Notes: generated by a model from the sequence alone, not told the origin. Positions 25,291 to 63,244 are shown, counted from the first letter of the stretch. The stretch: DNA of 64,000 bases from Candidatus Magasanikbacteria bacterium RIFCSPHIGHO2_01_FULL_33_34 (GCA_001782825.1 MFPS01000007.1:20487-84486); one strand, 5' to 3'. Numbers and translations are program-made.

Positions 25291-25440
25291 TAAAAAACTG
25301 TGGTTTTCACCACAGACATCTTGGATATCCTCGACCTTTTATTTATTTAAAAAAATAAAGTTAGGATTACCTCGGTAGCTTATTAAGGGTTATACCCTGC
25401 TACTGTCTGCGGTTTGCCCCTAATTGGGACATATATTACG
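25291..25440 (-). promoter_or_regulatory. rplJ leader (L10-leader-like) with attenuator hairpin
   Basis: ~147-nt leader from the minus-strand promoter; CTGTGGTG-aaaa-CCACAG hairpin plus TTTTTTATT only 11 nt before the rplJ ATG. Confidence 0.45.
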
Positions 25441-41675: not shown

Positions 41676-43027
41676 ATCATTTTTTTAATAGTTGCAGCTG
41701 AATAGAATATAAGCCAACTTAATACTAATGTTGAAAATAAACTCATAAGTGGTCTATACATGTATATATGTGAACCCTTGTCTTCTGCTTTACATGCTAA
41801 TGAGAATGAAAAGCCTATGATAAATATCCCTGCCAAATATATAATTGCTGAATAAATATCACCAACTAAAGGCATATAAACAAGATGCCTTATGGCAATA
41901 AATGGACCCGCCCATACAAAAAGTATATGCAAATAATAGTTTGTAGCCACAATAGGATGTTTTTTCCAATAAAATTCACCCGTAAAAAACATGTTTCTTA
42001 TAAAACTCTTTTTCCAACGAACCTGCTGTTTTATTACTGCTCTAAAAGTTTCTGGGACATTTGTTAAAGCTCTTGCAGATTTACAATATATAATTCTCCA
42101 AGATTGTGGAGGGTAAGTTTTTTTCAAGAAAGGAGAACCAGCATATTTTTTCTTTAATCTTTTATCAAGTTCATTAGAACCTAAAACAAATCCAGTCAAA
42201 GTACGATCAGTTGCAAACCTAAATTCCTGGCCAAAAAAACTATCGTGTTGCCACGCAGGTATATAATTATATATAGCAGAACGACGAAATACCGCTAATG
42301 GTCCTGATACACAACTTACTGCACTAAAAACACTCTCAAAAGCTTTTCTTACTGAGAATTGCCCTTCGTACCAAGAGTCTTGTATTTTTGTTATTAAATT
42401 CTTTTTTCCATTCAAAGCTCTACAATGACCACTTACACCACCCACATCAGGATTTGCTTGAAAGATTGTAACTATTCTTTCAATAGCATCTGGAGCAAGT
42501 ACTGAATCACTATCTGAAAATGCAAAGACCTCTCCTTTGGCCACAAGCATACCTTCAGCAAGTGCACGCTTTTTACCAACATTTTTATCTAATTTTATAA
42601 TTTTAACGTTTTTATTTTTCGAATATTTATCTACTAAAACCTTTCTTGTATTATCTGTACTTGCGTCATCTATAATTATAATCTCCTGATTTTTGTAAGT
42701 TTGTCCAAGAAAAGAATCTACACATTGAACTATAACATCTTCTTCATTATGTACAGCAACAAGGGAACTAACAAATAAACTTGGAATCTTATTTTTCTTT
42801 TTTAAATATTTTTTTGCTTCAATATATGGATCAGAATAAAAACGAAAAGCCACTACGAAGGTAATTAATAATACTAAAGTAACCAAAAGGCCATATACAT
42901 ATATAAATATATTACCCCTATCTACAAACAAAAGTTTGGCTAAAAATAATACCAAAATCACTATAATAACCACGTACATTATAGATATATAATCCCCTAG
43001 TGTTTTTTTACTCTTTTTAGCAGGCAT
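41660..43027 (-). CDS. Processive GT2 polysaccharide synthase (PgaC/IcaA/NodC/HAS-like) with N- and C-terminal TM bundles
   Basis: IIDDASTDNT, FSDSDS and QQVRWKKS (QxxRW) motifs. The stop overlaps the start of the 1327-aa gene by 16 nt. Confidence 0.7.
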   Translation of the reverse strand: MPAKKSKKTLGDYISIMYVVIIVILVLFLAKLLFVDRGNIFIYVYGLLVTLVLLITFVVAFRFYSDPYIEAKKYLKKKNKIPSLFVSSLVAVHNEEDVIVQCVDSFLGQTYKNQEIIIIDDASTDNTRKVLVDKYSKNKNVKIIKLDKNVGKKRALAEGMLVAKGEVFAFSDSDSVLAPDAIERIVTIFQANPDVGGVSGHCRALNGKKNLITKIQDSWYEGQFSVRKAFESVFSAVSCVSGPLAVFRRSAIYNYIPAWQHDSFFGQEFRFATDRTLTGFVLGSNELDKRLKKKYAGSPFLKKTYPPQSWRIIYCKSARALTNVPETFRAVIKQQVRWKKSFIRNMFFTGEFYWKKHPIVATNYYLHILFVWAGPFIAIRHLVYMPLVGDIYSAIIYLAGIFIIGFSFSLACKAEDKGSHIYMYRPLMSLFSTLVLSWLIFYSAATIKKMIWSRE

Positions 43028-43433
43028 AAATAAGACTTACAGTCTATTAATTATATGACTGCATAACCTACCACAAAATATAATTTTTGTCAAATATCTG
43101 TATAGTTAATATTCCTTATGTATCCCTTTTAGACATAATTGATAAATTATGTACTCAATAACATAAATTTAGTGTTCAAAAAAGGTATATATGAACACAT
43201 TATTTATCCACAGTTCACAGTTTAGCAACCGCTTGGTATAAATAAAAAAAACTGGTATAATGCCAGTAGGTTAATTCTTCATATATTTTTATGAGGGGAG
43301 CTAAAAAATCATTTTAAATTTTAAAGCCATTTTTTGATAGGCTATTTTTTGTCTCATTTCTACACTTGACAAAAAATACTAAATATGATAATGTTGCAAC
43401 CATTTAATCAAAGTACTTTTTATCATCTAATAG

Positions 43434-43506
43434 TGCCATCTAGTGGGATTGAACCACTACCTCAGGCTTAGCGGGCTCGCGTTCTATCCAGTTAAACTAA
43501 GATGAC
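43434..43506 (-). tRNA. tRNA-like gene, atypical (anticodon-loop reading GCU with C33 and no long variable arm); possibly a pseudogene or unusual tRNA
   Basis: Good acceptor (GTCATCT/AGATGGC), D-arm with GG, T-arm AGTGG-TTCAATC-CCACT. Anticodon stem CGAGC/GCCTG has one mismatch and the loop is CCGCTAA. Confidence 0.4.
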
Positions 43507-43565
43507 ACAATTAGATGATAAAGGGTATTTTAATCCTTTACAATTCCCCTTGCCTCTTGTGAGAG

Positions 43566-43847
43566 GTAGGACGAAAATTATTTTATAGAATTACGAGTTT
43601 TGTTTTGCGACTGGCTCGTTTTTCTTTTTAATTAAATTATTCTCATCTTTTTGTTTTTTCTTTTTGTGTTTTTTCGGTAATAGTAGATATATTGTGTTTT
43701 TGGCATATCTCCATATTTTTCCATCTTTGACAGTAAAATTACATAATGTAAAATTACCACAAGGTGATGGAAAGCACCTTTTCGGCGACCCAGTAATTGG
43801 GTGTACTAATATTTCCATAGTTTTCATTTTTCATTTCGTCCTACACC
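43566..43847. repeat. ~280-bp segment bounded by 11-12-bp inverted repeats (ggtaggacgaaa / tttcgtcctacc-like) enclosing the 78-aa ORF
   Basis: 43568-43578 taggacgaaaa is the reverse complement of 43834-43844. GC is higher than surroundings. It sits next to the tRNA-like gene. Confidence 0.3.
43591..43827 (-). CDS. Hypothetical Lys-rich small protein inside the IR-bounded segment
   Basis: 78-aa ORF; no recognised family. Confidence 0.25.
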   Translation of the reverse strand: MKTMEILVHPITGSPKRCFPSPCGNFTLCNFTVKDGKIWRYAKNTIYLLLPKKHKKKKQKDENNLIKKKNEPVAKQNS

Positions 43848-44124
43848 GTGCACAAAAGACAAGAGGGATTGTAAAGGTCTATCACAACAAAAAAAGCTCA
43901 ATGAATGTCACCTAACACCTAACCTACGTTTTTAACGCGTAGAATAGACTGTGTTTGCATACTACAATCCTGTCCTTTCAGTCAGGTATAGTATGGCATT
44001 CATTGAACCTTCTTTTAATTACGTTAAAATAAATAGTACAAGAATTATAGTATGCATCTATAACTATAACACATACACTTTTTTTTGCAAATAGCTTATT
44101 GCTATATGTGGATAAAATAAATTA

Positions 44125-44625
44125 CTACTGTGTAATTTCTGGATGTTCTTCTAAATATTTATCTCTAATATAAACACCCAAAGTTGGAGATATATTTTCT
44201 AGACTCCTACTTGGGTTATTGTATTGATAAATTTTCAAAAATTCCATATAAGGCTCATCATACAGTGTAACCACTGACTTTATTGAACTGTTCTCAACAT
44301 CAAATTTTAATTTTGGGTTTTCATTATCTATAAACCTAAAAAAAACTTCTTTATTTTTTTCAAACACATTGTCAAAACCAATTTCTTTAATGAAATTTTT
44401 ACCTTTTTCTGTGAGTTGAAACGGACTAAAAGTCTGCAATTCTGAAGGATCAAATTTTGTATGGTTTTTCATTAAATACTTGCAAACAACATCTAGATTT
44501 ATTTTTGTTTTATCTGATGTTTCTTTTAAGTTATCTAAAATCTGGAGTTTTCTTCCAATATAGATAAAAGCCCCTAAGACAGACACTATCCCTATCGTAG
44601 AGATTATTTGAAATGGAGAAAACAT
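44125..44625 (-). CDS. Hypothetical membrane-anchored protein (start trimmed to internal Met)
   Basis: The track ORF 44125..44802 overlaps the transposase gene by 72 nt. Met60 (MFSPFQIISTIGIV, a TM helix) is the more likely start. Confidence 0.4.
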   Translation of the reverse strand: MFSPFQIISTIGIVSVLGAFIYIGRKLQILDNLKETSDKTKINLDVVCKYLMKNHTKFDPSELQTFSPFQLTEKGKNFIKEIGFDNVFEKNKEVFFRFIDNENPKLKFDVENSSIKSVVTLYDEPYMEFLKIYQYNNPSRSLENISPTLGVYIRDKYLEEHPEITQ

Positions 44626-44639
44626 AAATTTCAATTTAT

Positions 44640-45720
44640 ATGTTGAAGTATTTTTATATTGATAGTATACTACAACAACTATGAAAAAACAACAAGCCCA
44701 AACTCCATTCCACAATCTACTAAAAAAGATTATTTCTTCACGACCGCAGAAAGCAAAGAAGCGAAGCGTAGCCTGTCGTTGCCTCGGTTGTTCCAATGCC
44801 AAACAAACTGGTCAAGATAACTCTGCAACTGCTCCTGCGAAATAGATTTGTATGTGCCTCGCAAAGAGGCTTTTACATGTTTCCAAAACCATTCTACATG
44901 GTTTATGTGTATGTCCCCCCGGGCATATTCTTTTTTTGAGTGATTAACGCTTTCTCGGTGGTATTCTTTGCTGGCGTTATCATAGCGGTTGCTCTCGTCT
45001 GTTAGAAGTCTGGTATTTTCAATTTGCACATTATCTTTCAAAAAACCATCAATCGTTTTGGCGGTTAGATTTGGTACTTTCTTGGCTCTCATGTCACCCT
45101 CACGCTCAATGGCGGCGATAACCTTAGCTTTACTTGCCATAACATCAGAATAGTTTTTATTATATTTTCCGCCATTGCCTTTACCGCCAAAAAACGCCTC
45201 GTCCATTTCCACATTGCCTCGCAGTGGGGTTGTGTCTTGCCCTATACTATCTCTGATTTGCTTTAATACCCTATAAGCGGTCTTATAGGTAACATTTAGC
45301 TGTCTTTGCATTTCTTTAGCTGATATACCTGATTTGGCGTTTGAGAATATCAAAATAGCATGAAACCATTGTTTTAGAGGTAAATGGGACTTTTCAAAAA
45401 TGCTGTCTGTCATTGGGGCGATTTGATACCTGCATTTTGAGCATTGATATTGTTTACGCCCTGTTAGCCTAACTCGTCCCTTTTTGTCTATTGTGGTCTT
45501 AAATAGAGGATTATATTCACCGCCACAAGCGCACTCCTTTGTATGTGATAGGCTGAATAGATAGTCTAGGCATGCCTCGTCAGTAGGGAAATCATGCTCT
45601 AGGTCTGTTCTGCCATAATAGTCTTGTTTTGCCATATTGTTATATTTAATTGATTATGTTGTAAGTATAACATAGACTAATTATGTTGTAAAGGGATACA
45701 TGTGTAATATTCAAGAATTA
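44640..45720 (-). mobile_element. IS1595-like insertion sequence (approximate bounds)
   Basis: A single transposase ORF with atypical composition. Terminal inverted repeats were not confidently located by eye. Confidence 0.4.
44730..45635 (-). CDS. IS1595-family (ISXO2-like) DDE transposase
   Basis: N-terminal zinc ribbon (CACGG...CSKCRY) followed by HTH and DDE region. GC and codon usage are higher than the host background. Confidence 0.7.
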   Translation of the reverse strand: MAKQDYYGRTDLEHDFPTDEACLDYLFSLSHTKECACGGEYNPLFKTTIDKKGRVRLTGRKQYQCSKCRYQIAPMTDSIFEKSHLPLKQWFHAILIFSNAKSGISAKEMQRQLNVTYKTAYRVLKQIRDSIGQDTTPLRGNVEMDEAFFGGKGNGGKYNKNYSDVMASKAKVIAAIEREGDMRAKKVPNLTAKTIDGFLKDNVQIENTRLLTDESNRYDNASKEYHRESVNHSKKEYARGDIHINHVEWFWKHVKASLRGTYKSISQEQLQSYLDQFVWHWNNRGNDRLRFASLLSAVVKK

Positions 45721-45787: not shown

Positions 45788-46738
45788 TTATTCCAAACCC
45801 CAATCTCTCTTCAATTCTGCAATCCCATCTTCAAATTTTATAGTTGGTTCCCAACCAAGAAGTTCTTTGGCTTTGGTTGTATCGGCTTCACTGCGTCTTG
45901 GGTCGCCTGGTCTCTCTGGTATATTCATAGTCTCGCCACCGATTAGACGCGCCAATTCATTGACTGATTTGCATTGACCATACCCAGCATTGATCACTTC
46001 ACCTTTGCCGACTTTGTCAGATGTCATCGCCAATAAATTTGCCCTAGCCACATCAGCCACATGGGTATAATCCCGATAATACTCCCCATCCCCACAAATC
46101 GTCATTGGCTCGCCTTTGGCTCTTTGTTTGAGGAATTTACCCACTACCAATGCATAAGCTCCTTCTGGGTCAATATATGGCCCATACACATTGAAATAGC
46201 GAAGTGATACTGTCTCAAAACCATAAAGCTCACTAAACAATCGGCAATACATCTCGCCTGTATATTTATGGAGCGCATAGGGGCTGATCGGGTTACCACA
46301 CATATCTTCTCTCAATTTTTCATTATCATTGCCACCATAGACAGATGACGAAGAGCTAAACACAAATCTTTTGACACCAGCATCGCGCGCGCCTACCAAC
46401 AGAGTCAGGGTTCCATTTACATTATTATCATTGGTTTCAATCGGATGCTCAATAGAATATGGCACACGTGGTATCGCTGCCAGATGAAATACGCCATCAA
46501 TACCCACCATAGCGCGCTTCACATCCTCCATATTGCGAATATCCCCTTCTATATATTCAACACCCTTTTGGATCCTATCATCTTTTTTGCCAGCGCTAAA
46601 ATTATCCAAAACACGAACTTTATGTCCATCACTCAAAAGTTTAATAACAATATTTGTGCCAATAAATCCAGCGCCACCGGTAACCAAATATTTCTTAGCC
46701 AATAGTTCAGAGCCAATAGGTTGTGCTTGATTGTTCAT
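45788..46738 (-). CDS. NAD-dependent nucleotide-sugar 4-epimerase (GalE/UDP-glucuronate epimerase-like extended SDR)
   Basis: TGGAGFIG Rossmann motif, YxxxK catalytic pair (YALHKY). Confidence 0.75.
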   Translation of the reverse strand: MNNQAQPIGSELLAKKYLVTGGAGFIGTNIVIKLLSDGHKVRVLDNFSAGKKDDRIQKGVEYIEGDIRNMEDVKRAMVGIDGVFHLAAIPRVPYSIEHPIETNDNNVNGTLTLLVGARDAGVKRFVFSSSSSVYGGNDNEKLREDMCGNPISPYALHKYTGEMYCRLFSELYGFETVSLRYFNVYGPYIDPEGAYALVVGKFLKQRAKGEPMTICGDGEYYRDYTHVADVARANLLAMTSDKVGKGEVINAGYGQCKSVNELARLIGGETMNIPERPGDPRRSEADTTKAKELLGWEPTIKFEDGIAELKRDWGLE

Positions 46739-46785
46739 AGTATTAGGTTTTAATTTTCTTATTTTGCTTATTCTGCCTATTCTGC

Positions 46786-48180
46786 TTAATTTGCTGATTC
46801 GCCTTTTATAAAAGGACTACCAATAGCGACAATATCAAATCCGGCTTTTTGCAATTCTTCATATCTGTGTTGCAAAATTCTACGCCCATCCATTATCAAA
46901 GTTTTATTATCAACTCCATCAATAATAGCATCAGCAAGACTACGAAATTGTGGCCAGTCAGTTGCAATAATTATTATATCAGAATCTTTAATCGCTTCAA
47001 ATTCACTAGTACAATATTTTATCTTGTCTGATTCAGGAAAATCATATTTAAACAAATCAGCTCCTTCTGGATCATACAATTGCATTTTTTCTACTCCATT
47101 TTCTTCCAAATGGCGGACAATATTTATACTTGGCGAATTACGAGTATCATTGGTATCTTTTTTGAAAGATAATCCAACAATAGCGACTTTCTTTCCACTC
47201 CAATCTACATTGGCATCATTTTTGGCTCGGCTCAAAAATAATTCTAATTGCCTTTTGTTTGCCAAATAAGTTTCATTGACAAGCACAGCATTTTGACCAG
47301 CTGTTTGTAATTGATGTGACAAAGAACGCGCGTCTTTTATAAAACAACTACCACCGGCATAAAGACTATCATAAAATCCCCAATTGCCAATTCTCTTGTC
47401 ACTAGTCATTATTCCTCGTAAATTTTCAAACTGCAAATCAGAAAAAGCTTCAGCCGTACGGCCAATCACATCAAAACATACCGCAAGTCTATTAAACAAA
47501 TAGAAATTTGCCAAAAGTTTTCCAGCGGCCGCTTCTTTTGGATTTACTTCAATATATTTAACCGTTGCTGAATCATAAAAACGCTGATACATCTTGCGCA
47601 TTATTTCAAAATCTTTTTCATTCCATGCACCAACCACCACTCTATCCGGACGAATTGATCCAACGATAGCTTGACCTTCAACCAAAAATTCTGGATTAGA
47701 GACAACCCCATAATTTTTTACTCCATATTTATCCATTATTTCTTGTGTCTTATCAACCATTGCAATTGGCACTGTACTTTTGTTTACAATCACTACATAT
47801 CTATCTTGCTTTCCACCATTTCGTTTAGCAAGATTTTCTCCCAAAGCTTCAGCGGCAGAATTATAATATTCCAAATTACTTTCCCCAGTTTCCCCTATCT
47901 CTGGAGTTGGTAAGCACATAAAAATAGCATCAACTGTATCCAAAAAATCAATTACCCGAGAATAATCAGTGGTAAATTCAATCCTATCTTTGTGACGAAT
48001 TAACAAATCACCTAAACCATCTTCAAAAATAACTGCTTCAATTACATCACGATCCCCTGACCCCAAAGCTTTTATTTTCTTTTCATCAATATCATAAACA
48101 AGCACATTGTGCCCACTATCAGCCGAAACAGCAGCCGAGCATGCGCCTACAAAACCTGAGCCAATATATAGAATATTCAT
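46786..48180 (-). CDS. ugd: UDP-glucose / UDP-N-acetyl-hexosamine 6-dehydrogenase family
   Basis: IGSGFVG N-terminal Rossmann motif, catalytic GGSCFIKD, 464 aa. Confidence 0.75.
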   Translation of the reverse strand: MNILYIGSGFVGACSAAVSADSGHNVLVYDIDEKKIKALGSGDRDVIEAVIFEDGLGDLLIRHKDRIEFTTDYSRVIDFLDTVDAIFMCLPTPEIGETGESNLEYYNSAAEALGENLAKRNGGKQDRYVVIVNKSTVPIAMVDKTQEIMDKYGVKNYGVVSNPEFLVEGQAIVGSIRPDRVVVGAWNEKDFEIMRKMYQRFYDSATVKYIEVNPKEAAAGKLLANFYLFNRLAVCFDVIGRTAEAFSDLQFENLRGIMTSDKRIGNWGFYDSLYAGGSCFIKDARSLSHQLQTAGQNAVLVNETYLANKRQLELFLSRAKNDANVDWSGKKVAIVGLSFKKDTNDTRNSPSINIVRHLEENGVEKMQLYDPEGADLFKYDFPESDKIKYCTSEFEAIKDSDIIIIATDWPQFRSLADAIIDGVDNKTLIMDGRRILQHRYEELQKAGFDIVAIGSPFIKGESAN

Positions 48181-49769: not shown

Positions 49770-49929
49770 AAAACGAGGTCGTCCCCGCGACGACCTCAAA
49801 ACTCCACTACTTTTAAATTATTGAAATTAGTGGAGTTTTTTATTTTATACTAAAAAACAAAATAATATATAATCTATATACTAATTATAAAAAAATTGGC
49901 CAATTAATTGGCCAATTTTTTAAATCTTT

Positions 49930-50607
49930 TTAATACTCTACATCTTCCTTTGAAGTAATGAGGTGGACTTTTTCAACACCACTCATTCCGGATAGTTCAC
50001 GAACAAAATCTTCTTTTTTATTTTCATCCACAAAACTAGCATGATACGTCATCTCTGAAGCCTTGCCATCTCGTTTTGAATTGATATTCAAAAGCATACT
50101 GTTTTTAAGATGTTTTTTGAATACTGATTCAAATGAATTCCCAGCTCCTTCATCATGATTAACTACAAATGAAAGTAAATATTCGTGTTTTCTCATTGAA
50201 CCAAAGTTAATCTTATCCAAAATCAATATTATCAACAAAATCAAAACAGTTCCGATGACCGCAATACTATAACTGCCTGTTCCAACTGCCATACCAATAG
50301 CTAAAGCAAAGAATATATAACCAGTATCTTTAGTATCCTTAACAGCTGTACGAAATCTTATAATTGAAAAAGCTCCCAAAAGCCCAAAAGCTCTGGCAAG
50401 ACTATTGCCAATCACCATCATCACCACTGAAACAATCACACTCATCAACACCAAAGTAAAAACAAATGATTGTGAATAAGAAAGACCTTTGTGTGTTTTT
50501 TTGTATACCATTGCAATCACAAATGATAATACAAAAGTTAATACTATATTCAATACAATTTGTGACATTGAATATGTTACCGTTCCTCCTGAAAATAATT
50601 CAGCCAT
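49930..50607 (-). CDS. DUF4956-family membrane protein
   Basis: 4 TM N-terminal half plus soluble C-terminal half, with a conserved family motif. Adjacent to the VTC and CotH genes, as is typical for this family. Confidence 0.55.
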   Translation of the reverse strand: MAELFSGGTVTYSMSQIVLNIVLTFVLSFVIAMVYKKTHKGLSYSQSFVFTLVLMSVIVSVVMMVIGNSLARAFGLLGAFSIIRFRTAVKDTKDTGYIFFALAIGMAVGTGSYSIAVIGTVLILLIILILDKINFGSMRKHEYLLSFVVNHDEGAGNSFESVFKKHLKNSMLLNINSKRDGKASEMTYHASFVDENKKEDFVRELSGMSGVEKVHLITSKEDVEY

Positions 50608-50641
50608 ATATATATTTATTAATTAAAATTTAATTTTATTT

Positions 50642-51463
50642 TTATATTCCAAAAGCTCCATCTGCAACCATACCATTATTTAACATTTTCTCTCTGACAT
50701 CCATTATGCCTTTTGTTTGTGGAAACTCATATGCAGACAAACTTCCTGAAGCTTCAATCGCCTTGCAATACTTTGAATATGAAATCCTCTCCAAATCAAA
50801 TTCCCTTATTACTTCACTCACATAATGTGGCAATGAACCATTAAATTTGACTTCCATAACCGTATTATTCCCAGATACATCCTCAAAATCATTGCCTTCA
50901 TAAAATAGATTATCATTTTGCACTGCTTTGATATTTTTGTCAAAAGTAATTCTGAAATTATCATTATATCTACCAAGGTATGGCTCCCTATCATAATTTA
51001 TCAAAACTTTTGGACCGATTGATCGCAAATGTTGTTCCCACTCAAATTCTTTAATAATATTTTTTCTATTCTGATCACGAATCGCTACTGTGCTATGAAA
51101 ATCATCATTTTTTATGAGTTTATCATAATCATCTCTACTCATCAAAAATCTATCTTTCAATATTACCGTATCATGACGTCTCTTTATTTCAAAAAATGAA
51201 TACTTCATAAATTCACCATCATTTCTATAAGTTCTAAGTCTAATTTTTTTTCTTTTGAGTACGCCGTCAATTTTTTCTTTATAATAGAAAAAACCCGGAC
51301 TATCATAATACAAACTTATCACTTCATACATTCCATTTTTATTTTTTTCAACAAATGAATCTTTTTTGATATATGGCGCAATTCTTTTTTTAATTTCTAA
51401 TTCTAAATCAAAAGTAATTAAATACTTGAATTCAAAACGCTGAAAATGTAATTTTGGATTCAT
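50642..51463 (-). CDS. VTC-domain protein (CYTH-like triphosphate tunnel, polyphosphate-polymerase-like)
   Basis: N-terminal FQRFEFKYLI, the hallmark start of bacterial VTC-domain proteins; 273 aa. Confidence 0.6.
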   Translation of the reverse strand: MNPKLHFQRFEFKYLITFDLELEIKKRIAPYIKKDSFVEKNKNGMYEVISLYYDSPGFFYYKEKIDGVLKRKKIRLRTYRNDGEFMKYSFFEIKRRHDTVILKDRFLMSRDDYDKLIKNDDFHSTVAIRDQNRKNIIKEFEWEQHLRSIGPKVLINYDREPYLGRYNDNFRITFDKNIKAVQNDNLFYEGNDFEDVSGNNTVMEVKFNGSLPHYVSEVIREFDLERISYSKYCKAIEASGSLSAYEFPQTKGIMDVREKMLNNGMVADGAFGI

Positions 51464-51476
51464 AAATAAATTATCA

Positions 51477-54374
51477 CTACTTTAATTCATACACCAAACC
51501 GACTGGACCCTCATCAATCCTTATCCCCAAATATTGCTCCAAAATTCCAGAATCACCACCTGTTTTGAATTTCATACTAGCATATTCATCACTATTTGTA
51601 AAGGTATCAGTAAATGATGGCTCTTTATCAAAATTTCCTTCACCATCATAATTACCTTCCACATCACTGTTTGAAATATCTATCTTAGAAAACTTATCCA
51701 AAATAATACTCTCTTTATTATCCCAAATAATAGTATTATATACCTGTGCCATACCACCTCCAAAAATCTCTTTTTTCTTGTATTCATTTATACCAATATC
51801 ATTATTTATGATGATATTATTTATTATTATTGGTTCAGACAAATCCTTTACTTCTATACCAATATGACATCCATCCAATAAATTATTAAATATTATTGGA
51901 GTTGACTTCTCTCCAGAACTAATACACTTGTCACCAGAAGACCTAATTTTATTATAACGAATAAGTACTGGTGAACCTGATGTATCTACCGCATCATTAC
52001 CATTCTCCCTAAAATCATTATATTCTATAACCCCATCTGAAAAATCATAATCTATCGCATCAGCTGAATTAGCCACAAATAAATTATTAGCAACTGTACT
52101 AGATGCATATTTGATATTCAAAGCATCGTCCCCTGTAGCATTTTCAAATTTATTATATCTGAGAATACTATCAGCATGGTGAATGGCGAGCATTCCCGAG
52201 AAAAACGCCCCATTGACAGTTGACTCACCACCGCCAGAAAATTCTACATACTCAAACTCACTCAAACCATCATTATCAAGCACAGCAAAATTTTCACCCT
52301 TGCTATCAGCCTCACCACGAACATAAATTTTATTATTTTCTACTCCTTTTGCAATCACAGGACTATATGAAACAAAAGATGCATCCTGCACCAAATTTAT
52401 ATTAGCCCCAGGCAATATTGTTAATTTTGTATTTTTTGGAATTATCACATTTTGTGAAAAAATATGAAGTCCAACTGGCAATACAATACCACTATCATTC
52501 AAATAAAATTGTGGATTTTCTACAATAAATTCTTGGGGAGTTTTTGATATATCATAAAAATTTGTAAATTCTGTATTATCCACAAAAACACCTACCACAT
52601 CTTTTACTTTTTTATCTGTATATGAATTTACGACTTTTAATTCAACACTTTTCAAGTCATTTAATTTTATGTCCCCATTAGGTATTATAACAAAATCATA
52701 TTTCTGTTTTTCTGCACGAAATACATTAAAGGCATAAAGATTAACTCTCTCATTATTTTTATCAAATTTTGTTATTTTTGGCATCAAATCATACTTTTCA
52801 CAACCAACTTCAACTGTCATTTTAGCTTGATCTATTTGAGCTCCACTACTTGAGCACAACAACTGTCCATCCTTATACACATCAAAATTTTTTAATTCAA
52901 TATCTTCATTATACTCAAAAATTACTTTATCTAAATGCACAGGGGCAAAAGTCTTAAAACTAGCCACCTCCAAAGACAAATTACTATTATCATTACTATT
53001 TGATATTACAAATGAAGCTTCAGAATTTTCAAAAAGATATTTTATTTGATTAAAGTTTTTTGCTAGATCACTACGTGTAGAATTTACTTCTTGCGCAAAA
53101 AAATCATATGAATGTCGACGAATCGGATCATTGTAAAATACTTTTTGAACAGACTCAAATAATTCATCATAATGATTCAAATCATCTTCCAAATTTTTGT
53201 CATCCATAACATACTCCCATAACATAGCATTCCTTTTATGCATTATTTTTTCATTGCTAAACAATCTATCTACCAAAGGATTAGCAGTTGCTTCCAATGC
53301 ATAATCTAAACTTTCTGTTGTATGTTCATTATCATAAACATACACATCCCAAGGCAGAAAAATAAATTTGCCAATACTCTTATCAAAATATATGCGTGCA
53401 TTATGAGAATAATCTTGATGCCAACTACCAGCTAGCAAATTATGAATACTCCATTTATAAAAATTTTCTTCATCAAGAATATCAAAAATTCTTTTATAAA
53501 AAGTTTCATTGTCAGCATCGTTTAATAAAGAAATTAATAGACTGATTTGAGTATGCTCATTTTCTCTTTTAGAAGGATCAGACACATACTTCTGCCAATA
53601 ATTTTCATCCGTATACAAATGCTGTTGAAAAGTATCACCTTCACCATATAAATTAGCATCACCACTTAAATTATGTGACTCAACAAATTCTTTTGTAAAA
53701 TGTTCAACCTCCCAATAAAGCGCTTGTTTGTCTCCATTTATCTCTACGGCCACAAACTTACTGTCTGGGACTACTAAACCCATTTTTTCTGCCCTATAAT
53801 TATTAAATTCTTCAGCAAGATATCTTCTGTCAAGTGGAATAACCAAATTTATATCCTGTTTACCAAAAAATAAATCATCTTTTGAAAATCTAATCCTAAA
53901 AGACTTTTTTGGAAAAGTCCAATGTGGAGGTCCATTACCACGAAAACGAACTTTTACATCATAAACTCTACCTTCAAATGTAAACTTGGCTGGTACATAA
54001 TCTCTATTTTCATCAGCCAACCTATCATCAACACCATCTACATAACCAGGTGAATCCTTACGAGCTTCAAGATCAGGTATATTACTTTCCAATTTTTTCA
54101 AATTATCTTTAGATATATCTAGTTTATAAACTGGTAAACTACTTTCTGGAAATTTATGAAAAACATACTTCAAATCTTTAATACCATCTCTAGTATTAGT
54201 AGCCATTTGTACAATAAAACTAGGTAAAATTTTCTCTACTGATGCTTTGCCAGAACCACTAGCATATATAACAAAAAATACTGTACCTAAAATAATTGCC
54301 ACTAAACTCAAAAATATACTTAAATATGATAATTTAATGTATTTTTGCCATATTCTTTTGATTTTATCTTTCAT
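51477..54374 (-). CDS. Membrane-anchored CotH-family (atypical kinase) protein fused to a C-terminal right-handed parallel beta-helix
   Basis: N-terminal TM; CotH core (VKVRFRGNGPPHWTFPKKSFRIRF...INLVIPLDRRYLAEEFNNY...VAVEINGDKQALYWEVEHF); C-terminal tandem NNI/NNL/DG repeats typical of pectate-lyase-like beta-helices. Confidence 0.65.
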   Translation of the reverse strand: MKDKIKRIWQKYIKLSYLSIFLSLVAIILGTVFFVIYASGSGKASVEKILPSFIVQMATNTRDGIKDLKYVFHKFPESSLPVYKLDISKDNLKKLESNIPDLEARKDSPGYVDGVDDRLADENRDYVPAKFTFEGRVYDVKVRFRGNGPPHWTFPKKSFRIRFSKDDLFFGKQDINLVIPLDRRYLAEEFNNYRAEKMGLVVPDSKFVAVEINGDKQALYWEVEHFTKEFVESHNLSGDANLYGEGDTFQQHLYTDENYWQKYVSDPSKRENEHTQISLLISLLNDADNETFYKRIFDILDEENFYKWSIHNLLAGSWHQDYSHNARIYFDKSIGKFIFLPWDVYVYDNEHTTESLDYALEATANPLVDRLFSNEKIMHKRNAMLWEYVMDDKNLEDDLNHYDELFESVQKVFYNDPIRRHSYDFFAQEVNSTRSDLAKNFNQIKYLFENSEASFVISNSNDNSNLSLEVASFKTFAPVHLDKVIFEYNEDIELKNFDVYKDGQLLCSSSGAQIDQAKMTVEVGCEKYDLMPKITKFDKNNERVNLYAFNVFRAEKQKYDFVIIPNGDIKLNDLKSVELKVVNSYTDKKVKDVVGVFVDNTEFTNFYDISKTPQEFIVENPQFYLNDSGIVLPVGLHIFSQNVIIPKNTKLTILPGANINLVQDASFVSYSPVIAKGVENNKIYVRGEADSKGENFAVLDNDGLSEFEYVEFSGGGESTVNGAFFSGMLAIHHADSILRYNKFENATGDDALNIKYASSTVANNLFVANSADAIDYDFSDGVIEYNDFRENGNDAVDTSGSPVLIRYNKIRSSGDKCISSGEKSTPIIFNNLLDGCHIGIEVKDLSEPIIINNIIINNDIGINEYKKKEIFGGGMAQVYNTIIWDNKESIILDKFSKIDISNSDVEGNYDGEGNFDKEPSFTDTFTNSDEYASMKFKTGGDSGILEQYLGIRIDEGPVGLVYELK

Positions 54375-54382
54375 ATAATCTA

Positions 54383-56053
54383 CTAATTTATATTAAATTC
54401 AAATAATTGATCTGTATATTTATTCCTTATTAAAATTTTAACATCAAAATCTTCTTCATACCCAAAATCAATATTATCAATTTTTATATTTAATTGAGAA
54501 AAATTTAACTTAAAAGCCTTATAATAATCATTTATCACTGGATAAATCTCTTTTGGACTTGGCAATTGTATAAGTTCAATATCTGGTAAAATTTCTAAAT
54601 TAATTTGTTTCTCCGTTTCTTCGTCATTAGATAATATTTTAATTTTCTCAACAAAAAGAGGTGATAATGACCTTGTTTTTATGTTAAACACAAAATTATT
54701 GTCGCCCTCTCTGACAGATCCACTAAAATTAATATCATTAAAAAGATCTCTCATAGTCTCTACATTGCCCACGATCTTATCCCTATATACAGCCACTTCT
54801 TTATCAAAATCCTTATTTGCCCCCCTCCTTATATCATCCTGATAAAATGCAATTTTAGTATCATAATACAACTGGTCATAATATTCAAGTTCATCTTTTA
54901 AATTATTTTCATTACCTACATATTGCCACAATCTATAATTTCTCTCAGACATAAACTCTGGTATAGCCAAAATTTTATTAATCAATATGTTTGAATGTTC
55001 TTCAAAAAACATAGGATCAGACGAATCATCATCTATAGAAAACATTACAACATCAATAGGAATAAATTTAAACTTGCCCAATGAAGAATCAAAATAATAC
55101 CGTATATTATGACCCCAATCCTGATGCTGTCCAAATGCCAAAGCATTATGTATACTCCAAGAATAAAAACTATCCTTATCAACAATAGAAAATATATTTT
55201 CTTTAAATTCTTTTTCATCCGCATCATTTACTAAATATCTCAATAATTCCACTTCTGCAAAATTACCTTCTGCAAATCTTAAATCATTATTATACTTTTT
55301 AAAATTATCCAATGAATCAAACAAATTTCCATATGATGTATTATTGGTATATTCATCACTCTCCCCATAAAAATTAGCGTCACTACTCAACTGAGCAACT
55401 TCCAACATTTCTTTTTCATAATGCTCTACTGTCCAATAAACAGCCGGATCTTTTCCATTAATCCTAACTACTGAAAAAAAACTTCTTGGAACTGTCAAAC
55501 CTAGACGTTTTGCTCTATAATGATTAAATTGTTCAACTAAATATGATCTATCAAAAGGAACAATAAAATTTAAATTCTTTATTCCTAAAAATAAATTATC
55601 ATCAAATTGAATTCTCCATGATTTTTTATCCCACAACCAATGATTTTTTGAAACTCCTCTTTTTCTTATTTTTATTTTATATTCTCTATCACCATCTACA
55701 AACTCCGCATCTTCATAATTTTTATATTCATCAGTCAATTGTTCACTTTGTTTCGGTATTTCATTTCTAAGAGATTCTAATTTATCTTTATCTATTTTTA
55801 TATTGTATTCAGGAAGTCCATGCTCTACATTAATATATTTTAGATAAGACAAATTACGAATAGATTCTAAACTCTCTCTAGTATTAACCCTGATAAACGA
55901 TGGCACCTTGGATATAATCAACCACTTATCTGGCCCAGTTATATAAGCAAAAACAAAAATAAAAACTAAGCTAAGTGAAATTAAGCTTAGCAGTAAACTA
56001 AGCAGATTTTTTTCTAAAATTTTTTTAGATATTTTTTTAAAAAATTTTTTCAT
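54383..56053 (-). CDS. Membrane-anchored CotH-family protein (paralogue)
   Basis: N-terminal TM; the CotH core is paralogous to the upstream gene (IKIRKRGVSKNHWLWDKKSWRIQF...FIVPFDRSYLVEQFNHY...VVRINGKDPAVYWTVEHY). Confidence 0.65.
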   Translation of the reverse strand: MKKFFKKISKKILEKNLLSLLLSLISLSLVFIFVFAYITGPDKWLIISKVPSFIRVNTRESLESIRNLSYLKYINVEHGLPEYNIKIDKDKLESLRNEIPKQSEQLTDEYKNYEDAEFVDGDREYKIKIRKRGVSKNHWLWDKKSWRIQFDDNLFLGIKNLNFIVPFDRSYLVEQFNHYRAKRLGLTVPRSFFSVVRINGKDPAVYWTVEHYEKEMLEVAQLSSDANFYGESDEYTNNTSYGNLFDSLDNFKKYNNDLRFAEGNFAEVELLRYLVNDADEKEFKENIFSIVDKDSFYSWSIHNALAFGQHQDWGHNIRYYFDSSLGKFKFIPIDVVMFSIDDDSSDPMFFEEHSNILINKILAIPEFMSERNYRLWQYVGNENNLKDELEYYDQLYYDTKIAFYQDDIRRGANKDFDKEVAVYRDKIVGNVETMRDLFNDINFSGSVREGDNNFVFNIKTRSLSPLFVEKIKILSNDEETEKQINLEILPDIELIQLPSPKEIYPVINDYYKAFKLNFSQLNIKIDNIDFGYEEDFDVKILIRNKYTDQLFEFNIN

Positions 56054-57864: not shown

Positions 57865-58503
57865 TTATTCTTCCTTATAAATTTTCAAAATGTATTTTTT
57901 ACCTTTATATTCAAAAAAAGCTGGATATTTTTCATTATCCACCACCCGCAACAAATTAAACTGTTCTGCTAAAGTCTTTTCTGTATCCAATTCACTATCT
58001 TCATCTGATCTTTTCTTATAAAAACTTTCCTCACCACTTTGTGGCTTACCATCAACACTTGGATATTTATCAACAAAGTCTAAAATCAGCTCATTTATTT
58101 TTTCACCCTGTTTTTGATGCAATTCTGATAAAAGTTCATGTCCTTCAAATTTAATTTGGTTTTGCATATAAATGTTACCTGCATCTACTGCGTCCACCGC
58201 CTCAAAAAGTGTATTAGTAATTTCTGATTTGCCTTCCAAAATAGACCATGTCATAGGCGACCAACCTTTACCATTTGGCAAATCACTAGAATGAACCACT
58301 AAACTAAGTTTACTAAGATCCCTAATTTCTTTTTTAATTATTTTTTCACAACTCAAAAAAAACGCCAACTCACCATTCTGTACCTCATCTATAGTGTGCA
58401 CCAAAAAAACCTCATGCCCTCTTTCTTCTAAAATATTTTTTAAATCTTTGGTATATTTATAAAACCAACTTTTTGGATTATCCATTAAAAGTGTAATCTT
58501 CAT
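57865..58503 (-). CDS. Formyltransferase-domain protein (sugar N-formyltransferase-like)
   Basis: HSSDLPNGKGWSPMTWSILEGKSEITNTLFEAVDAVDAGNI matches the Fmt-N HxSLLPxxRG...D signature. Confidence 0.6.
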   Translation of the reverse strand: MKITLLMDNPKSWFYKYTKDLKNILEERGHEVFLVHTIDEVQNGELAFFLSCEKIIKKEIRDLSKLSLVVHSSDLPNGKGWSPMTWSILEGKSEITNTLFEAVDAVDAGNIYMQNQIKFEGHELLSELHQKQGEKINELILDFVDKYPSVDGKPQSGEESFYKKRSDEDSELDTEKTLAEQFNLLRVVDNEKYPAFFEYKGKKYILKIYKEE

Positions 58504-58507
58504 AATA

Positions 58508-59269
58508 TTATTTTCTAAAAAAATCCATATTTTTTATATCATTTTCTAAATCCATTCCAACTTTAGGTGTCTCAAACACAAGAAATATATCTTTATCTTT
58601 TGCATATTTTTCTAGAATTTTATACACCCAAGAGACATCAAAATTAGCTTCGTACAAATTTCCATGTTCATCAATTGGATTATCAATACTGCAACCAGAA
58701 ATATGAAAATATTCTGGTTGTAAATCCTTCAAAGCTTCTTCAATACTATTTTTATAATCTAACTTATAATAAACACAAGCCTTTATAAATTTAGATATAT
58801 CTAAACATATCGGTTTTTGTTTATATATTTTTCTTAAATCATCCAAAGAGCCACCAAATTTTCTTAATTTACTATCAAACGGACTAACAATTGGCATACT
58901 CTCAATTAATATTCTAGGATCATCTATTTTTGCTAAATTTTCTTGAAATGATTCCCAATTATGTTCAACAGCTGGATGCACTATTATTCTCGGTGCATCA
59001 AAAAAATTACTCAATTCTATAGTCATATTCCAAGGTTTTTTCTGTTCTTCAGTAAGAAAAAAATTATGAAAACCTGCTTTGTCTAAATGACCAACATGAA
59101 CACCTTGGACTGACAGCTCTTTTAATTTGTTAAGTGCATCATAATCATGCTCAAACTCACTATTGCTATAAACTTCTGCAAAATCAAAATATCCTTTTTT
59201 ATATCTCTCAACGGCCTCATCAAAAAGATGCGTATTATTTGACCAAATTTTTAAACCATATTTTATCAT
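58508..59269 (-). CDS. Hypothetical protein, possible xylose-isomerase-like TIM barrel (sugar epimerase/isomerase)
   Basis: 253 aa; the alternating beta/alpha pattern and conserved His/Glu/Asp positions are suggestive only. Confidence 0.3.
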   Translation of the reverse strand: MIKYGLKIWSNNTHLFDEAVERYKKGYFDFAEVYSNSEFEHDYDALNKLKELSVQGVHVGHLDKAGFHNFFLTEEQKKPWNMTIELSNFFDAPRIIVHPAVEHNWESFQENLAKIDDPRILIESMPIVSPFDSKLRKFGGSLDDLRKIYKQKPICLDISKFIKACVYYKLDYKNSIEEALKDLQPEYFHISGCSIDNPIDEHGNLYEANFDVSWVYKILEKYAKDKDIFLVFETPKVGMDLENDIKNMDFFRK

Positions 59270-61645: not shown

Positions 61646-63244
61646 ATGTTTAAGGAAAAATTACCATCAAAATATAATATATTCCTAACCATAATTGGAA
61701 TATCCTTTTTTATTGGGATTTGGTATGCATTCCCTATGCTTGATGTTGTAGCAGATGAAAATTATTTTACAGGTAGCGTACTTCGGTCAATCCAAAATCA
61801 TACAATAATACCAGCTATGGGCGATGTGCCTTATGGAGTCATCACATACTTAGTCAATTATATTTTAATAGCTTTTTCTTTGATAGGTTTTCTTCTTTTT
61901 TTCAAATTTGATGTTTCTGCTTTAAAAGATTATCTAATCCAATCACCAGAATTTATATACATATTTCCTAGACTATTAAGTGCTATGCTAGGGATAGTAA
62001 TACTATTTACTCTAAATAATTTTTTAAAAAAGGAAGTAGAAGATATAAAATCTAAAATATTATTGTTGACTGTAACTTTTACAAACATGCTTACAGTTTT
62101 TATGTTGCACACAGGAAAAGTATGGATATTGAGTATGACATTCCTGACAATTTCCTTTTATTATTTATACAAAGCAATAGAATATAACCAAACACCAAAA
62201 TACAATATAAACAAATATATTTTTATAAGTATACTATGTAGCCTTCTTGCAACAATAAATTTTTCATTATTTGGTTTTTCACTAATAAATATATTAATTC
62301 TGTTATATTTATTTAGAAAAAACAAACAGATCCAAAAAAGTATAATAAAATATTCTTTTTTAGCAGGTCTTATTACAGCTATTTTCGCTTCTCTTACTTT
62401 TAAAGATATTACCAAATTGTTAGTAGATGTATTCACTTTTATGAATCCTGTGCTAGACAAAAATATAGTTGATACACGAATAAATTTAAGTATACCAGAA
62501 GAAATGTGGTTAAATATAAAAAAAATATTAGCCTTTTTCCCTATTCATATTATATTGATTTTACTATCAATAAAAAATAAAATTAAAAATAAAAAATTAT
62601 TTATACTCTCAATAATATATTTTATTGTATATTTTCTGTTTATTTCATCAATTGCAACCTGGCCAACAAAAATAGAGGCTTTTGCTAGATATATGTTCCC
62701 TTTTGGTTTTTTACTTACATTTATATTAATGTCCCTCAACATAAAATTTACAAAACTACATTATACACTTGGTGGAATATCAATAATATATTTTATTTTT
62801 GCAATGACATTTATTTCTATACCAACCAGCTACAATCTAACCAGAGATTGGATAATTGAAAATTTAAACCAAGACAAAACTATTGTAGTAAATAAAATCC
62901 ATGGTTTAGAATTACCTAAAAATAAAGATTCATATTATACATACCAAGACTATTATTGCGCTACAAAATGTAAAAATACCATAAAAAATAATATAAATAA
63001 TCATATAAAATATATAACCATAGACCTACACAGCAAAAAAGAAGACTATGAATCTTCTTACACTAACATATATTATATAACAAAAGAAAAATCTACTGAA
63101 TCAAATTTAAATTTAATAAAAAGCTTTGCAGAAGATGGGATAGATAATTTTGAATTAGACGGAAGAATGGGAAATTATTTTGATCTAGATTTTTTTAGAA
63201 TAAAAATGTTTGGTCCAGATATTTATATATACAAAAAAATTTAA
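61646..63244 (+). CDS. Polytopic membrane protein, probable GT-C-like glycosyltransferase
   Basis: 532 aa, >10 TM, loop composition similar to the neighbouring GT-C gene. Low specificity. Confidence 0.35.
   Translation: MFKEKLPSKYNIFLTIIGISFFIGIWYAFPMLDVVADENYFTGSVLRSIQNHTIIPAMGDVPYGVITYLVNYILIAFSLIGFLLFFKFDVSALKDYLIQSPEFIYIFPRLLSAMLGIVILFTLNNFLKKEVEDIKSKILLLTVTFTNMLTVFMLHTGKVWILSMTFLTISFYYLYKAIEYNQTPKYNINKYIFISILCSLLATINFSLFGFSLINILILLYLFRKNKQIQKSIIKYSFLAGLITAIFASLTFKDITKLLVDVFTFMNPVLDKNIVDTRINLSIPEEMWLNIKKILAFFPIHIILILLSIKNKIKNKKLFILSIIYFIVYFLFISSIATWPTKIEAFARYMFPFGFLLTFILMSLNIKFTKLHYTLGGISIIYFIFAMTFISIPTSYNLTRDWIIENLNQDKTIVVNKIHGLELPKNKDSYYTYQDYYCATKCKNTIKNNINNHIKYITIDLHSKKEDYESSYTNIYYITKEKSTESNLNLIKSFAEDGIDNFELDGRMGNYFDLDFFRIKMFGPDIYIYKKI

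Follow-up and report, generated by a model that had tools for sequence, protein, structure and literature searches.

A window of 64,000 nucleotides (the whole stretch of DNA analysed) from a groundwater Candidatus Magasanikbacteria, a bacterium of the candidate phyla radiation (CPR), carries four consecutive minus-strand genes that encode a DUF4956 membrane protein, a VTC-domain protein and two CotH-family proteins, one of which is fused to a parallel beta-helix (Table 1). The open reading frames (ORFs) lie exactly at 49930-56053, where the initial annotation, made from the sequence alone, had drawn them, and its CotH, VTC and DUF4956 assignments all exceed the Pfam thresholds. Two features stand out. 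The VTC protein aligns with the yeast polyphosphate (polyP) polymerase Vtc4 over all the residues required for catalysis, and its gene is paired with that of DUF4956 in practically every locus inspected. Both proteins belong to large families with no known biochemical function, and we consider below whether they may supply phosphate to enzymes outside the cell membrane.

Genes of these kinds have been met before. Whitfield et al. (2020) regarded cotH, DUF4956, DUF4832 and a gene for a polyP polymerase as accessories of Gram-positive pelDEADAFG operons and proposed regulation by phosphorylation (PMC7112168). The neighbourhood, which the initial annotation had called uncharacterised, is so in the sense that its function still is; it had already been published as a Pel accessory, with knock-out phenotypes (PMC7112168, PMC12345266). 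The module is the known but functionally uncharacterised CotH-VTC-DUF4956 kind of exopolysaccharide loci, here as a non-Pel variant with the fusion found in CPR and with a second CotH gene next to a NeuB-like gene. What appear to be new with respect to the searchable literature are the intact Vtc4 catalytic set, a remodelled CotH loop and a VTC-DUF4956-Cthe_2159 form in gut bacteria. The authors of a study in Streptococcus intermedius did not find the three-gene synteny outside Pel loci (PMC12345266). It does occur there, as seen in the window, in many CPR loci and on plasmids of Pseudobutyrivibrio and Planococcus.

The VTC protein and its membrane partner

The VTC protein scores 136 bits against PF09359 (cutoff 23) and consists of the VTC domain alone, with neither an SPX domain nor a transmembrane (TM) segment according to Pfam and hydropathy. 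The single sequence found no match in a PDB search, and a profile was needed: that built from 18 homologues matches the catalytic domain of yeast Vtc4 (3G3Q, E=3e-13), with lower scores against the non-catalytic Vtc2/3. According to published mutagenesis, polyP synthesis by yeast Vtc4 needs K200, R264, R266, K281, Y359, R361, S457 and K458 as well as the Mn-binding E426, and K458 is the sole one of these residues that is replaced (by Leu/Ile) in Vtc2/3. How many of them are kept in the window? In a HMMER alignment, K13, R75, R77, K94, Y157 and R159 correspond to Vtc4 K200, R264, R266, K281, Y359 and R361. A C-terminal sub-profile aligns E204 and S230-K231 with Vtc3 E493 and S526-L527, that is, with Vtc4 E426 and S457-K458; this segment alone is not significant, and it fits the published equivalence of Vtc4 K458 and Vtc3 L527. 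All nine positions are invariant among the 18 bacterial homologues. As judged from these alignments, none of the Vtc4 catalytic residues is missing from the VTC protein, not even the lysine lost in Vtc2/3. Its VTC-only architecture together with this residue set points to a stand-alone Vtc4-type catalytic domain, predicted to be a cytoplasmic polyP polymerase.

The DUF4956 protein (73.7 bits against PF16316, cutoff 30.6) is predicted to have five TM helices followed by a C-terminal ACT-like domain. It carries the motif GAFSxxRFR...KD, in which R84 and R86 are invariant in sets of both 32 and 40 homologues, and K93 and D94 in the set of 32. In the structural model R84 and R86 sit at the end of TM3, a side that would be the cytoplasmic face by the positive-inside rule. 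Scores against MgtC (PF02308/NF007431) do not reach the thresholds (25.3 bits vs 31.4 in Pfam, 48.9 vs 214 in NCBIfam). By its sequence the protein is MgtC-like, sharing the architecture and the ACT-like C-terminal domain, and is not MgtC itself. The family is large, with 6296 cluster representatives (50% identity) related at E<=1e-3, and its members are uniformly of about 225 aa.

The CotH proteins and the fused beta-helix

Both CotH proteins clear the PF08757 cutoff of 23.8 bits, the fusion with 91.3 and the paralogue without beta-helix (CotH2) with 62.2 bits, and they are 35% identical to each other over about 490 aa (E=4e-90). Each begins with a Lys/Arg-rich stretch and then has, by hydropathy, one hydrophobic helix, which by the positive-inside rule predicts an N-in, C-out topology. 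The initial annotation had presented them as two paralogous membrane-anchored proteins with extracytoplasmic CotH domains. The paralogy and the single N-terminal helix are as described, and the signal-anchor topology likewise predicts that the CotH domains are extracytoplasmic.

An AF2 model of the 965-aa fusion (pLDDT 88.6) comprises the anchor helix, the CotH domain, two beta-sandwich modules and the beta-helix. Its kinase domain superimposes on Bacillus cereus CotH (5JDA) with a Foldseek E=1.2e-16 and a TM-score of 0.81; a single-sequence PDB search with the 556-aa CotH2 gave no match. Among 20 homologues, down to 22% identity, G146, H151, W152, K156, K157, S158, N213, H319, N325, W342 and D343 are invariant. 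The catalytic loop reads H-Q-D-x-x-H-N in both paralogues (H319-Q320-D321-x-x-H-N325 in the fusion). The catalytic Asp of B. subtilis CotH is Asp228, of which the D228Q mutant is inactive (PMC7821199); D228 and D251 come from that study, and their positions were transferred by way of the B. cereus chain, where they are likewise 23 residues apart. The metal-binding D251 corresponds to D343 and the catalytic-loop Asn to N325, and CotH2 likewise has H-N and an Asp at the former position, within P-I-D where the fusion has P-W-D. The position of D228 is occupied by Q320 according to HMMER and hhalign, or by the invariant H319 according to MAFFT, and the adjacent D321 is kept in 14 of the 20 homologues. 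The kinase residues are thus only partly canonical: the Lys-Lys-Ser strand, Asn325 and Asp343 are invariant, and the Asp228 position appears to be taken by Gln in both paralogues. The invariant residues argue for an enzyme rather than a scaffold, and taken together with the altered loop they suggest an active site that is conserved but remodelled. The loop, with an invariant His and a Gln at the Asp position, hints at a chemistry different from that of the Bacillus CotH Ser kinase.

Some relatives depart from this scheme. A CotH::beta-helix protein of Peregrinibacteria (L014:837-4625) is without the KKS strand and the W-D motif, and its kinase looks degenerate; in a Magasanikbacteria locus (L013:7740-9992) the fusion keeps a kinase-domain fragment only, with an intact separate CotH paralogue. 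This decay beside an intact paralogue suggests a division of labour between the two proteins. Proteins of 1107-1117 aa with two tandem CotH domains followed by a beta-helix are found in loci labelled 'archaeon' (L023:458-3781) and 'Gammaproteobacteria' (L027:6620-9973), and they combine in one chain what the window has as two separate CotH genes.

The initial annotation had given the beta-helix about 450 aa. The helix proper measures about 280 aa (~620-900), and two beta-sandwich modules (452-598) stand before it. Its Foldseek matches include GH87 glucanases, the PL9 pectate lyase Pel9A, the AlgG epimerase, PL6 alginate lyases, PfbA and tailspikes, and it has a conserved Asp/Lys ladder made of D749, D750, D772, D775, D777, D794, D797, D815, K816, E822 and K843. 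Fold similarity is the ground for the glycan binding proposed for it.

Conservation of the module

A genome scan seeded with an alignment of eight VTC sequences yielded 33 loci from different species, which are not an unbiased sample since the seed patterns favour CPR-like sequences. DUF4956 adjoins VTC in 32 of them, the remaining one (L034) being a 1.5-kb fragment, so that the triad is as recurrent as had been claimed. In 30/31 loci DUF4956 comes right after VTC, on the same strand and no more than 40 nt away; the median gap is 4 nt, and in 14 loci the genes overlap. The VTC-DUF4956 gene pairing is obligate.

The CPR type comprises 22 loci (21 complete ones and the fragment), which are labelled Magasanik-, Sacchari-, Niyogi-, Peregrini-, Kuenen- and Buchananbacteria, Parcubacteria, one 'archaeon', several 'Gammaproteobacteria' and a few unclassified 'bacterium'/Patescibacteria. 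Of the 21 complete loci, 15 have a CotH-family or beta-helix ORF immediately upstream of VTC, and 13 of these 15 ORFs, truncated ones counted, are CotH::beta-helix fusions of ~750-1260 aa; such an ORF is directly downstream in 1/21, and CotH is elsewhere in the locus in 4/21. The fusion is thus the usual form of the operon across CPR and no special trait of the window; the second CotH gene alone is lineage-specific.

Among 135 neighbour genes of 19 CPR-type loci, Pfam recognised methyltransferases (20), GT1/GT4 (12), NDP-sugar epimerases/dehydratases (9), GT2 (6), ABC transporters (5), polysaccharide deacetylases (5) and carbamoyltransferases (4); the enrichment of glycan genes is our judgement from these raw counts without background frequency, not a statistic. 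The clearest case of the module inside a glycan assembly operon is L021:3815-20699, where CotH, OTCase-like and NodU-type carbamoyltransferases, GDSL, VTC, DUF4956, a Wzx flippase, a methyltransferase, a B12-radical-SAM protein, a deacetylase, GT4, two further genes and another CotH follow one another on one strand. The expected conservation with glycan genes in relatives therefore holds for general surface-glycan genes (GT4, GT2, epimerases, methyl- and carbamoyltransferases, deacetylases, Wzx) and extends to the NeuB-like gene only within Magasanikbacteria.

The other 11 loci (L028-L033, L035-L039) are of a gut type and come from gut Clostridia, Erysipelotrichaceae, Muribaculaceae, Bacilli, 'Tenericutes' and animal-associated Saccharibacteria. 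A CotH profile trained on CPR sequences found no CotH in these 11 loci, and CotH is not among their 25 commonest neighbour families. The gene directly after DUF4956 encodes a Cthe_2159 protein (PF14262) in nine of the ten loci tested (e.g., L031:4142-7181 and L038:9974-13259). These proteins have an N-terminal hydrophobic start, and genes for two-component systems often lie close by. The Cthe_2159 family consists of PL9-like beta-helices with affinity for cellulose and polygalacturonate (PMC6712302). A comparison with the fused beta-helix of the window gave no sign of sequence homology (hhalign probability 7.8%); the fold class alone is shared. With CotH swapped for Cthe_2159 in the gut loci, the constant core of the module would be VTC, DUF4956 and a beta-helix protein predicted to face outward, CotH belonging to one branch.

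The triad is also found in cultured bacteria. Plasmids of Pseudobutyrivibrio xylanivorans (such as pNP95 of strain MA3014, L040:5545-8684) carry CotH, VTC and DUF4956 among GT61, GT2 and GT4 glycosyltransferases and acyltransferases according to RefSeq, and a plasmid of Planococcus maritimus XJ11 (L045:4470-12824) carries VTC, DUF4956, CotH, a hypothetical gene, a HEAT-repeat gene and a glycosyltransferase.

The operon and its glycan surroundings

In the window, nine minus-strand genes run from 61562 to 49930, and the last seven (from 59269) are spaced by 1-34 nt. The gaps DUF4956/VTC, VTC/fusion, fusion/CotH2 and CotH2/NeuB-like measure 34, 13, 8 and 1 nt, and the protein lengths agree with the gene calls of 24 public metagenome contigs. 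The NeuB-like fusion gene probably shares an operon with the four-gene cluster, and the formyltransferase-like and 253-aa genes are likely the start of that operon. A scan with a terminator consensus found 8 sites against 3.2 expected in shuffles, the strongest ones directly after the DUF4956 stop; a promoter scan was uninformative, with 77 matches against 79 in shuffled sequence.

Table 1. Features of the CotH-VTC-DUF4956 operon and of the CotH::beta-helix fusion protein (window coordinates).
Feature	Position	Strand	Basis
DUF4956, 225 aa	49930-50607	-	PF16316 E=2e-20
VTC, 273 aa	50642-51463	-	PF09359 E=1.7e-39
CotH::beta-helix fusion, 965 aa, predicted membrane-anchored	51477-54374	-	Pfam CotH E=1.1e-25 and Beta_helix/NosD
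N-terminal signal-anchor helix of the fusion, aa ~11-42	54249-54344	-	Hydropathy; modelled helix 2-39
CotH kinase-fold domain of the fusion, aa ~80-450	53025-54137	-	Foldseek 5JDA, phmmer 5JD9 E=1e-12, conservation
Two beta-sandwich spacer modules of the fusion, aa 452-598	52581-53021	-	Model secondary structure; weak cohesin-like Foldseek hits
Right-handed parallel beta-helix of the fusion, aa ~620-900 (~280 aa)	51675-52517	-	Pfam Beta_helix/NosD, Foldseek
CotH paralogue (CotH2), 556 aa, predicted membrane-anchored, without beta-helix	54383-56053	-	Pfam CotH E=7.9e-17
NeuB-family::CTP_transf_3 cytidylyltransferase fusion, 602 aa	56055-57863	-	Pfam, PDB matches
Formyltransferase-like gene (212 aa) and 253-aa gene	57865-59269	-	Pfam Formyl_trans_N; 1-4 nt from downstream genes
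Terminator region 3′ of DUF4956	49774-49921	-	Palindromic hairpin 49890-49921; 10-bp GC-rich hairpin and T-run 49798-49774

The NeuB-like neighbour had been the reason to speak of a sialic-acid-like locus. Its synthase and cytidylyltransferase parts pass Pfam (NeuB 44 bits, cutoff 22.1; CTP_transf_3 67 bits); the synthase stays far below the equivalog models (45 vs 399 bits for NeuB, 35 vs 340 for PseI). PDB matches are the sialic acid synthase 6NCS (E=4e-7), 3G8R and 8H2C for the former part and the cytidylyltransferase 6OEW (E=8e-22) for the latter, which is a candidate CMP-sugar synthetase. Upstream candidates of a nonulosonic-acid pathway in the window amount to a generic SDR epimerase/dehydratase and the formyltransferase-like protein, which has ArnA- and fmt-like NCBIfam matches with scores under the model cutoffs. 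The second CotH paralogue recurs only in L007, L013 and L042, close relatives of the Magasanikbacteria type, and is preceded there by a NeuB-like and/or cytidylyltransferase gene. The two activities are fused in the window and in L042 and are encoded by separate adjacent genes in a Magasanikbacteria metagenome-assembled genome (MAG; L007:3468-5211). A nonulosonic-acid link as a general property of the module was rejected, as NeuB-like genes occur only in Magasanikbacteria-type contigs and are outside the 25 commonest neighbour families.

The glycan region begins at about 36 kb, takes up the rest of the window and includes, by Pfam, GT2 enzymes, a nucleotidyltransferase, a PMT_2 glycosyltransferase and RmlC. 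Within 37692-43027 and 45788-48180 lie a chitin/hyaluronan-synthase-like membrane GT2 (41660-43027), a 1327-aa heparinase II/III::polysaccharide deacetylase fusion (37692-41675), a UDP-glucose dehydrogenase and an SDR epimerase, a set that looks like a synthase-dependent system for a uronate-containing, partly deacetylated (glycosaminoglycan-like) polymer and is unusual in a CPR genome. The region is split at 43433-45635 by a tRNA-Ser (GCT), an IS1595-family transposase (44730-45635) and an overlapping 225-aa ORF, and the G+C content is 0.26-0.30 from about 50 kb on against 0.30-0.37 earlier; the split and the drop are compatible with a variable or acquired glycan island. The plus strand encodes, at 61646-63244, a 532-aa protein without any Pfam or NCBIfam match, in which about 13 segments are hydrophobic. 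Its homologue in a Buchananbacteria MAG (439 bits, L022:2-1942) lies about 8 kb from the VTC module there, and it may be a Wzy/GT-C-like glycan enzyme travelling with the system. The window as a whole has a G+C content of about 31% and contains bacterial housekeeping genes, among its ordinary elements a ribosomal protein L10 leader (Rfam RF00557, 54 bits; 25282-25430, minus strand) upstream of the L10/L12 genes, which confirms that the DNA is bacterial. Its VTC and DUF4956 proteins match those of a Candidatus Magasanikbacteria MAG from Rifle groundwater with 100% identity. A role of the four proteins in anti-phage defence was rejected, with zero PADLOC hits.

Possible function and alternative explanations

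What might such an operon do? We propose, tentatively and at somewhat less than an even chance, that it is a trans-envelope phosphate module in the service of the surface-glycan locus around it. An outline of the process would be as follows: initially, the soluble Vtc4-type VTC protein would polymerise phosphate from ATP, as homology and the residue set suggest. DUF4956 would dock the polymerase and pass the nascent chain through the membrane, a step suggested by gene adjacency, topology and conserved residues and by analogy with the eukaryotic VTC channel. Then the two anchored CotH-fold enzymes would phosphorylate or polyphosphorylate a glycan or surface proteins with the exported phosphoanhydride, while the PL9/AlgG-like beta-helix of the fusion may hold a probably acidic polysaccharide chain. 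An exported phosphoanhydride is put forward as donor because ATP is not available outside the membrane, and the third partner, be it CotH, CotH::beta-helix or Cthe_2159, is consistently predicted to be outside the membrane. The more specific proposition, that VTC and DUF4956 form a prokaryotic polyP synthase-translocase, independent of the eukaryotic channel, that supplies polyP-dependent CotH-fold phosphotransferases acting on glycans or surface proteins, is in our estimate rather unlikely to hold in full.

Several observations weigh against the proposal. The literature records no measured activity for any bacterial VTC, DUF4956 or secreted CotH protein, and ATP is the sole known donor of the CotH fold. 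With Gln apparently at the D228 position and an inactive D228Q mutant, the CotH domains could be pseudokinases; their outward topology is a prediction. DUF4956 has no detectable relation to the Vtc1-type channel, its conserved basic residues could reflect the positive-inside rule alone, and no VTC-DUF4956 fusion was seen among the 120 best VTC and the 120 and 150 best DUF4956 homologues listed in a search that was not exhaustive. The Asp ladder of the beta-helix may be a structural trait of PbH1 repeats. Finally, deletion of the VTC gene in S. intermedius had no clear effect (PMC12345266), and as deletions of its neighbours are visible, this speaks against strict dependence on VTC-made polyP in that organism.

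Could the module regulate glycan output instead? CotH would then be a Ser/Thr kinase acting on the glycan machinery or surface proteins, the ACT-like domain of DUF4956 would sense a metabolite, and polyP would stay inside as a signal. Protein Ser phosphorylation is the sole proven CotH activity, ACT-like folds are typical of ligand sensing, two-component systems lie near gut-type loci, and the phosphorylation control proposed by Whitfield et al. has been raised as an idea for Pel loci without c-di-GMP control. In S. intermedius (SIR_1592-1594), moreover, deletions shift Pel amounts in opposite directions: that of DUF4956 raises Pel and lowers aggregation, and that of the CotH gene lowers both (PMC12345266). 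However, the kinase domains are predicted to be outside, away from the cytoplasmic synthesis enzymes and ATP; the fusion to a polysaccharide-enzyme-like beta-helix, together with the carbohydrate-binding beta-helix that replaces CotH in gut loci, points to the polymer as the target; and the VTC-DUF4956 pairing is far tighter than loose co-regulation requires. We regard regulation as unlikely. PolyP itself might be exported as a surface polyanion, a 'pseudo-capsule' bound or anchored through cation bridges by the beta-helix proteins, with CotH capping or attaching it, which we consider decidedly unlikely. That would suit a core of VTC, DUF4956 and an outward beta-helix that is invariant across 31 loci, with CotH dispensable in the gut type, and it would suit both the acidic-polysaccharide binding of the PL9-like Cthe_2159 proteins (PMC6712302), given that the window helix matches PL9, PL6 and AlgG, and the recurring deacetylases, which would yield cationic glycans that polyP could cross-link. 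Yet no beta-helix protein is known to bind polyP, the two beta-helix families are without sequence homology by hhalign, so that the shared fold may be coincidence, and the strong conservation of the CotH active site suggests that catalysis is central in the CPR form.

An epibiotic life is commonly assumed for CPR bacteria, and the CotH proteins might be extracellular protein kinases that act on host or partner cells or on the organism's own S-layer with scavenged ATP, the beta-helix being an adhesin and VTC/DUF4956 an unrelated phosphate-storage pair. That Bacillus CotH is a protein kinase and that beta-helix proteins are often adhesins (compare the PfbA and tailspike matches) would fit, but the same operon also occurs in Firmicutes, both free-living ones and those of the gut, and on plasmids carried by cultured bacteria, so that it is not tied to epibiosis, the canonical catalytic Asp seems not to be conserved, and the recurrence across phyla of VTC-DUF4956 with CotH or beta-helix proteins is hard to explain by chance co-transcription. 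We judge this very unlikely, and phosphorylation of host proteins, which the initial annotation had also raised, found no support. The least probable of the readings considered is a degenerate assembly in which CotH pseudokinases are structural or adhesive, VTC is a generic triphosphate-tunnel phosphohydrolase and the beta-helix is the sole enzyme, a lyase or epimerase on a uronic-acid glycan. The Gln at the catalytic-Asp position in both paralogues, the kinase decay and truncation in the two CPR loci described above and the resemblance of the beta-helix to AlgG, PL6 and PL9 agree with it, and the UDP-glucose dehydrogenase and heparinase-like protein in the locus suggest a uronate polymer. Against it stand eleven CotH positions, including Lys-Lys-Ser, N325 and D343, that remain invariant in distant homologues, and the retention in VTC of K231 (Vtc4 K458), which polymerase activity specifically requires and which the non-catalytic Vtc2/3 have lost.

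Taken together, the domain assignments hold, the catalytic residues are partly kept and a glycan context recurs in relatives, so that on these three counts the initial annotation is not contradicted outright. If the trans-envelope phosphate module is real, it would explain the source of the phosphoryl donor for secreted CotH-type kinases, that is, kinase chemistry in an ATP-free compartment. It would also represent a new decoration of surface glycans, with consequences for charge, cation binding and aggregation of the kind that the Pel phenotypes suggest, and would offer a handle on the barely charted envelope biology of CPR bacteria. Bacterial polyP is classically ascribed to PPK1/PPK2, and a paired Vtc4-type polymerase would be a second route with a different destination. 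The comparison corrects the published impression of a Pel-restricted synteny and yields cultured hosts of the triad as well as residues as test points.

Comparison with known systems

Among the closest known systems is the Pel accessory module. In both, the three families stand side by side in an exopolysaccharide locus, CotH is predicted to be secreted or anchored and ends in a non-catalytic module, DUF4956 is described as MgtC-like, with TM helices and an ACT domain, and the function is uncharacterised. Unlike the Pel module, the window has the order CotH-VTC-DUF4956, a duplicated and beta-helix-fused CotH (FN3 in Pel) and a CPR host. No Pel-specific family or DUF4832 was found in the Pfam-scanned ORFs of 27.6-64 kb, some of which have no Pfam match at all; the scan took in ORFs from 110 aa upward (from 80 aa beyond 44 kb), minus three short ones that overlap annotated genes.

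The eukaryotic VTC complex (Vtc4/Vtc3/Vtc1) couples polyP synthesis to translocation via a TM channel lined with basic residues (PMC9911596; bioRxiv 10.1101/2023.01.27.525886). Common to both systems are a homologous triphosphate-tunnel domain with identical catalytic residues, a genetically inseparable membrane partner, basic residues at the cytoplasmic face and a product presumed to be delivered to the non-cytoplasmic side, translocation being hypothetical for the window. The window protein differs in having no SPX and no fused or Vtc1-type (DUF202) TM domain, and its tunnel motif reads R-x-E-x-K, the first Glu being kept, where Vtc4 has R-x-T-x-K. Its partner is an unrelated MgtC-like protein with five TM helices. 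Without SPX or a Vtc1-type TM channel, and with an MgtC-like neighbour instead of DUF202, it is not a member of the VTC complex and is at most a functional analogue. DUF4956 in turn is set apart from the MgtC/SapB/YhiD family by the invariant GAFSxxRFR motif and the obligate pairing with VTC, which are not MgtC features.

The Bacillus CotH spore-coat Ser kinase, reportedly described by Nguyen et al. in 2016, shares with the window proteins the fold (5JD9/5JDA), the RG...KKS strand, the catalytic-loop Asn and the metal-binding Asp. It works with ATP in the mother-cell cytoplasm, whereas the CotH proteins of the window are membrane-anchored and predicted to face outward. Their loop is one residue longer, with Gln apparently at the D228 position and an invariant His two residues before a semi-conserved Asp, and the fusion has the extra beta-sandwich and beta-helix modules.

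A further variant is found in NELoc-2 of Clostridium perfringens (PMC2879425) and on the Planococcus plasmid, where the order is VTC-DUF4956-CotH-hypothetical-HEAT-GT, there is no beta-helix fusion, and the HEAT-repeat and 690-aa partners are without counterpart in the window. In these loci, too, the triad stands beside a membrane (chitin-synthase-like) glycosyltransferase, as it does in the window, where the chitin-synthase-like GT2 is about 7 kb away.

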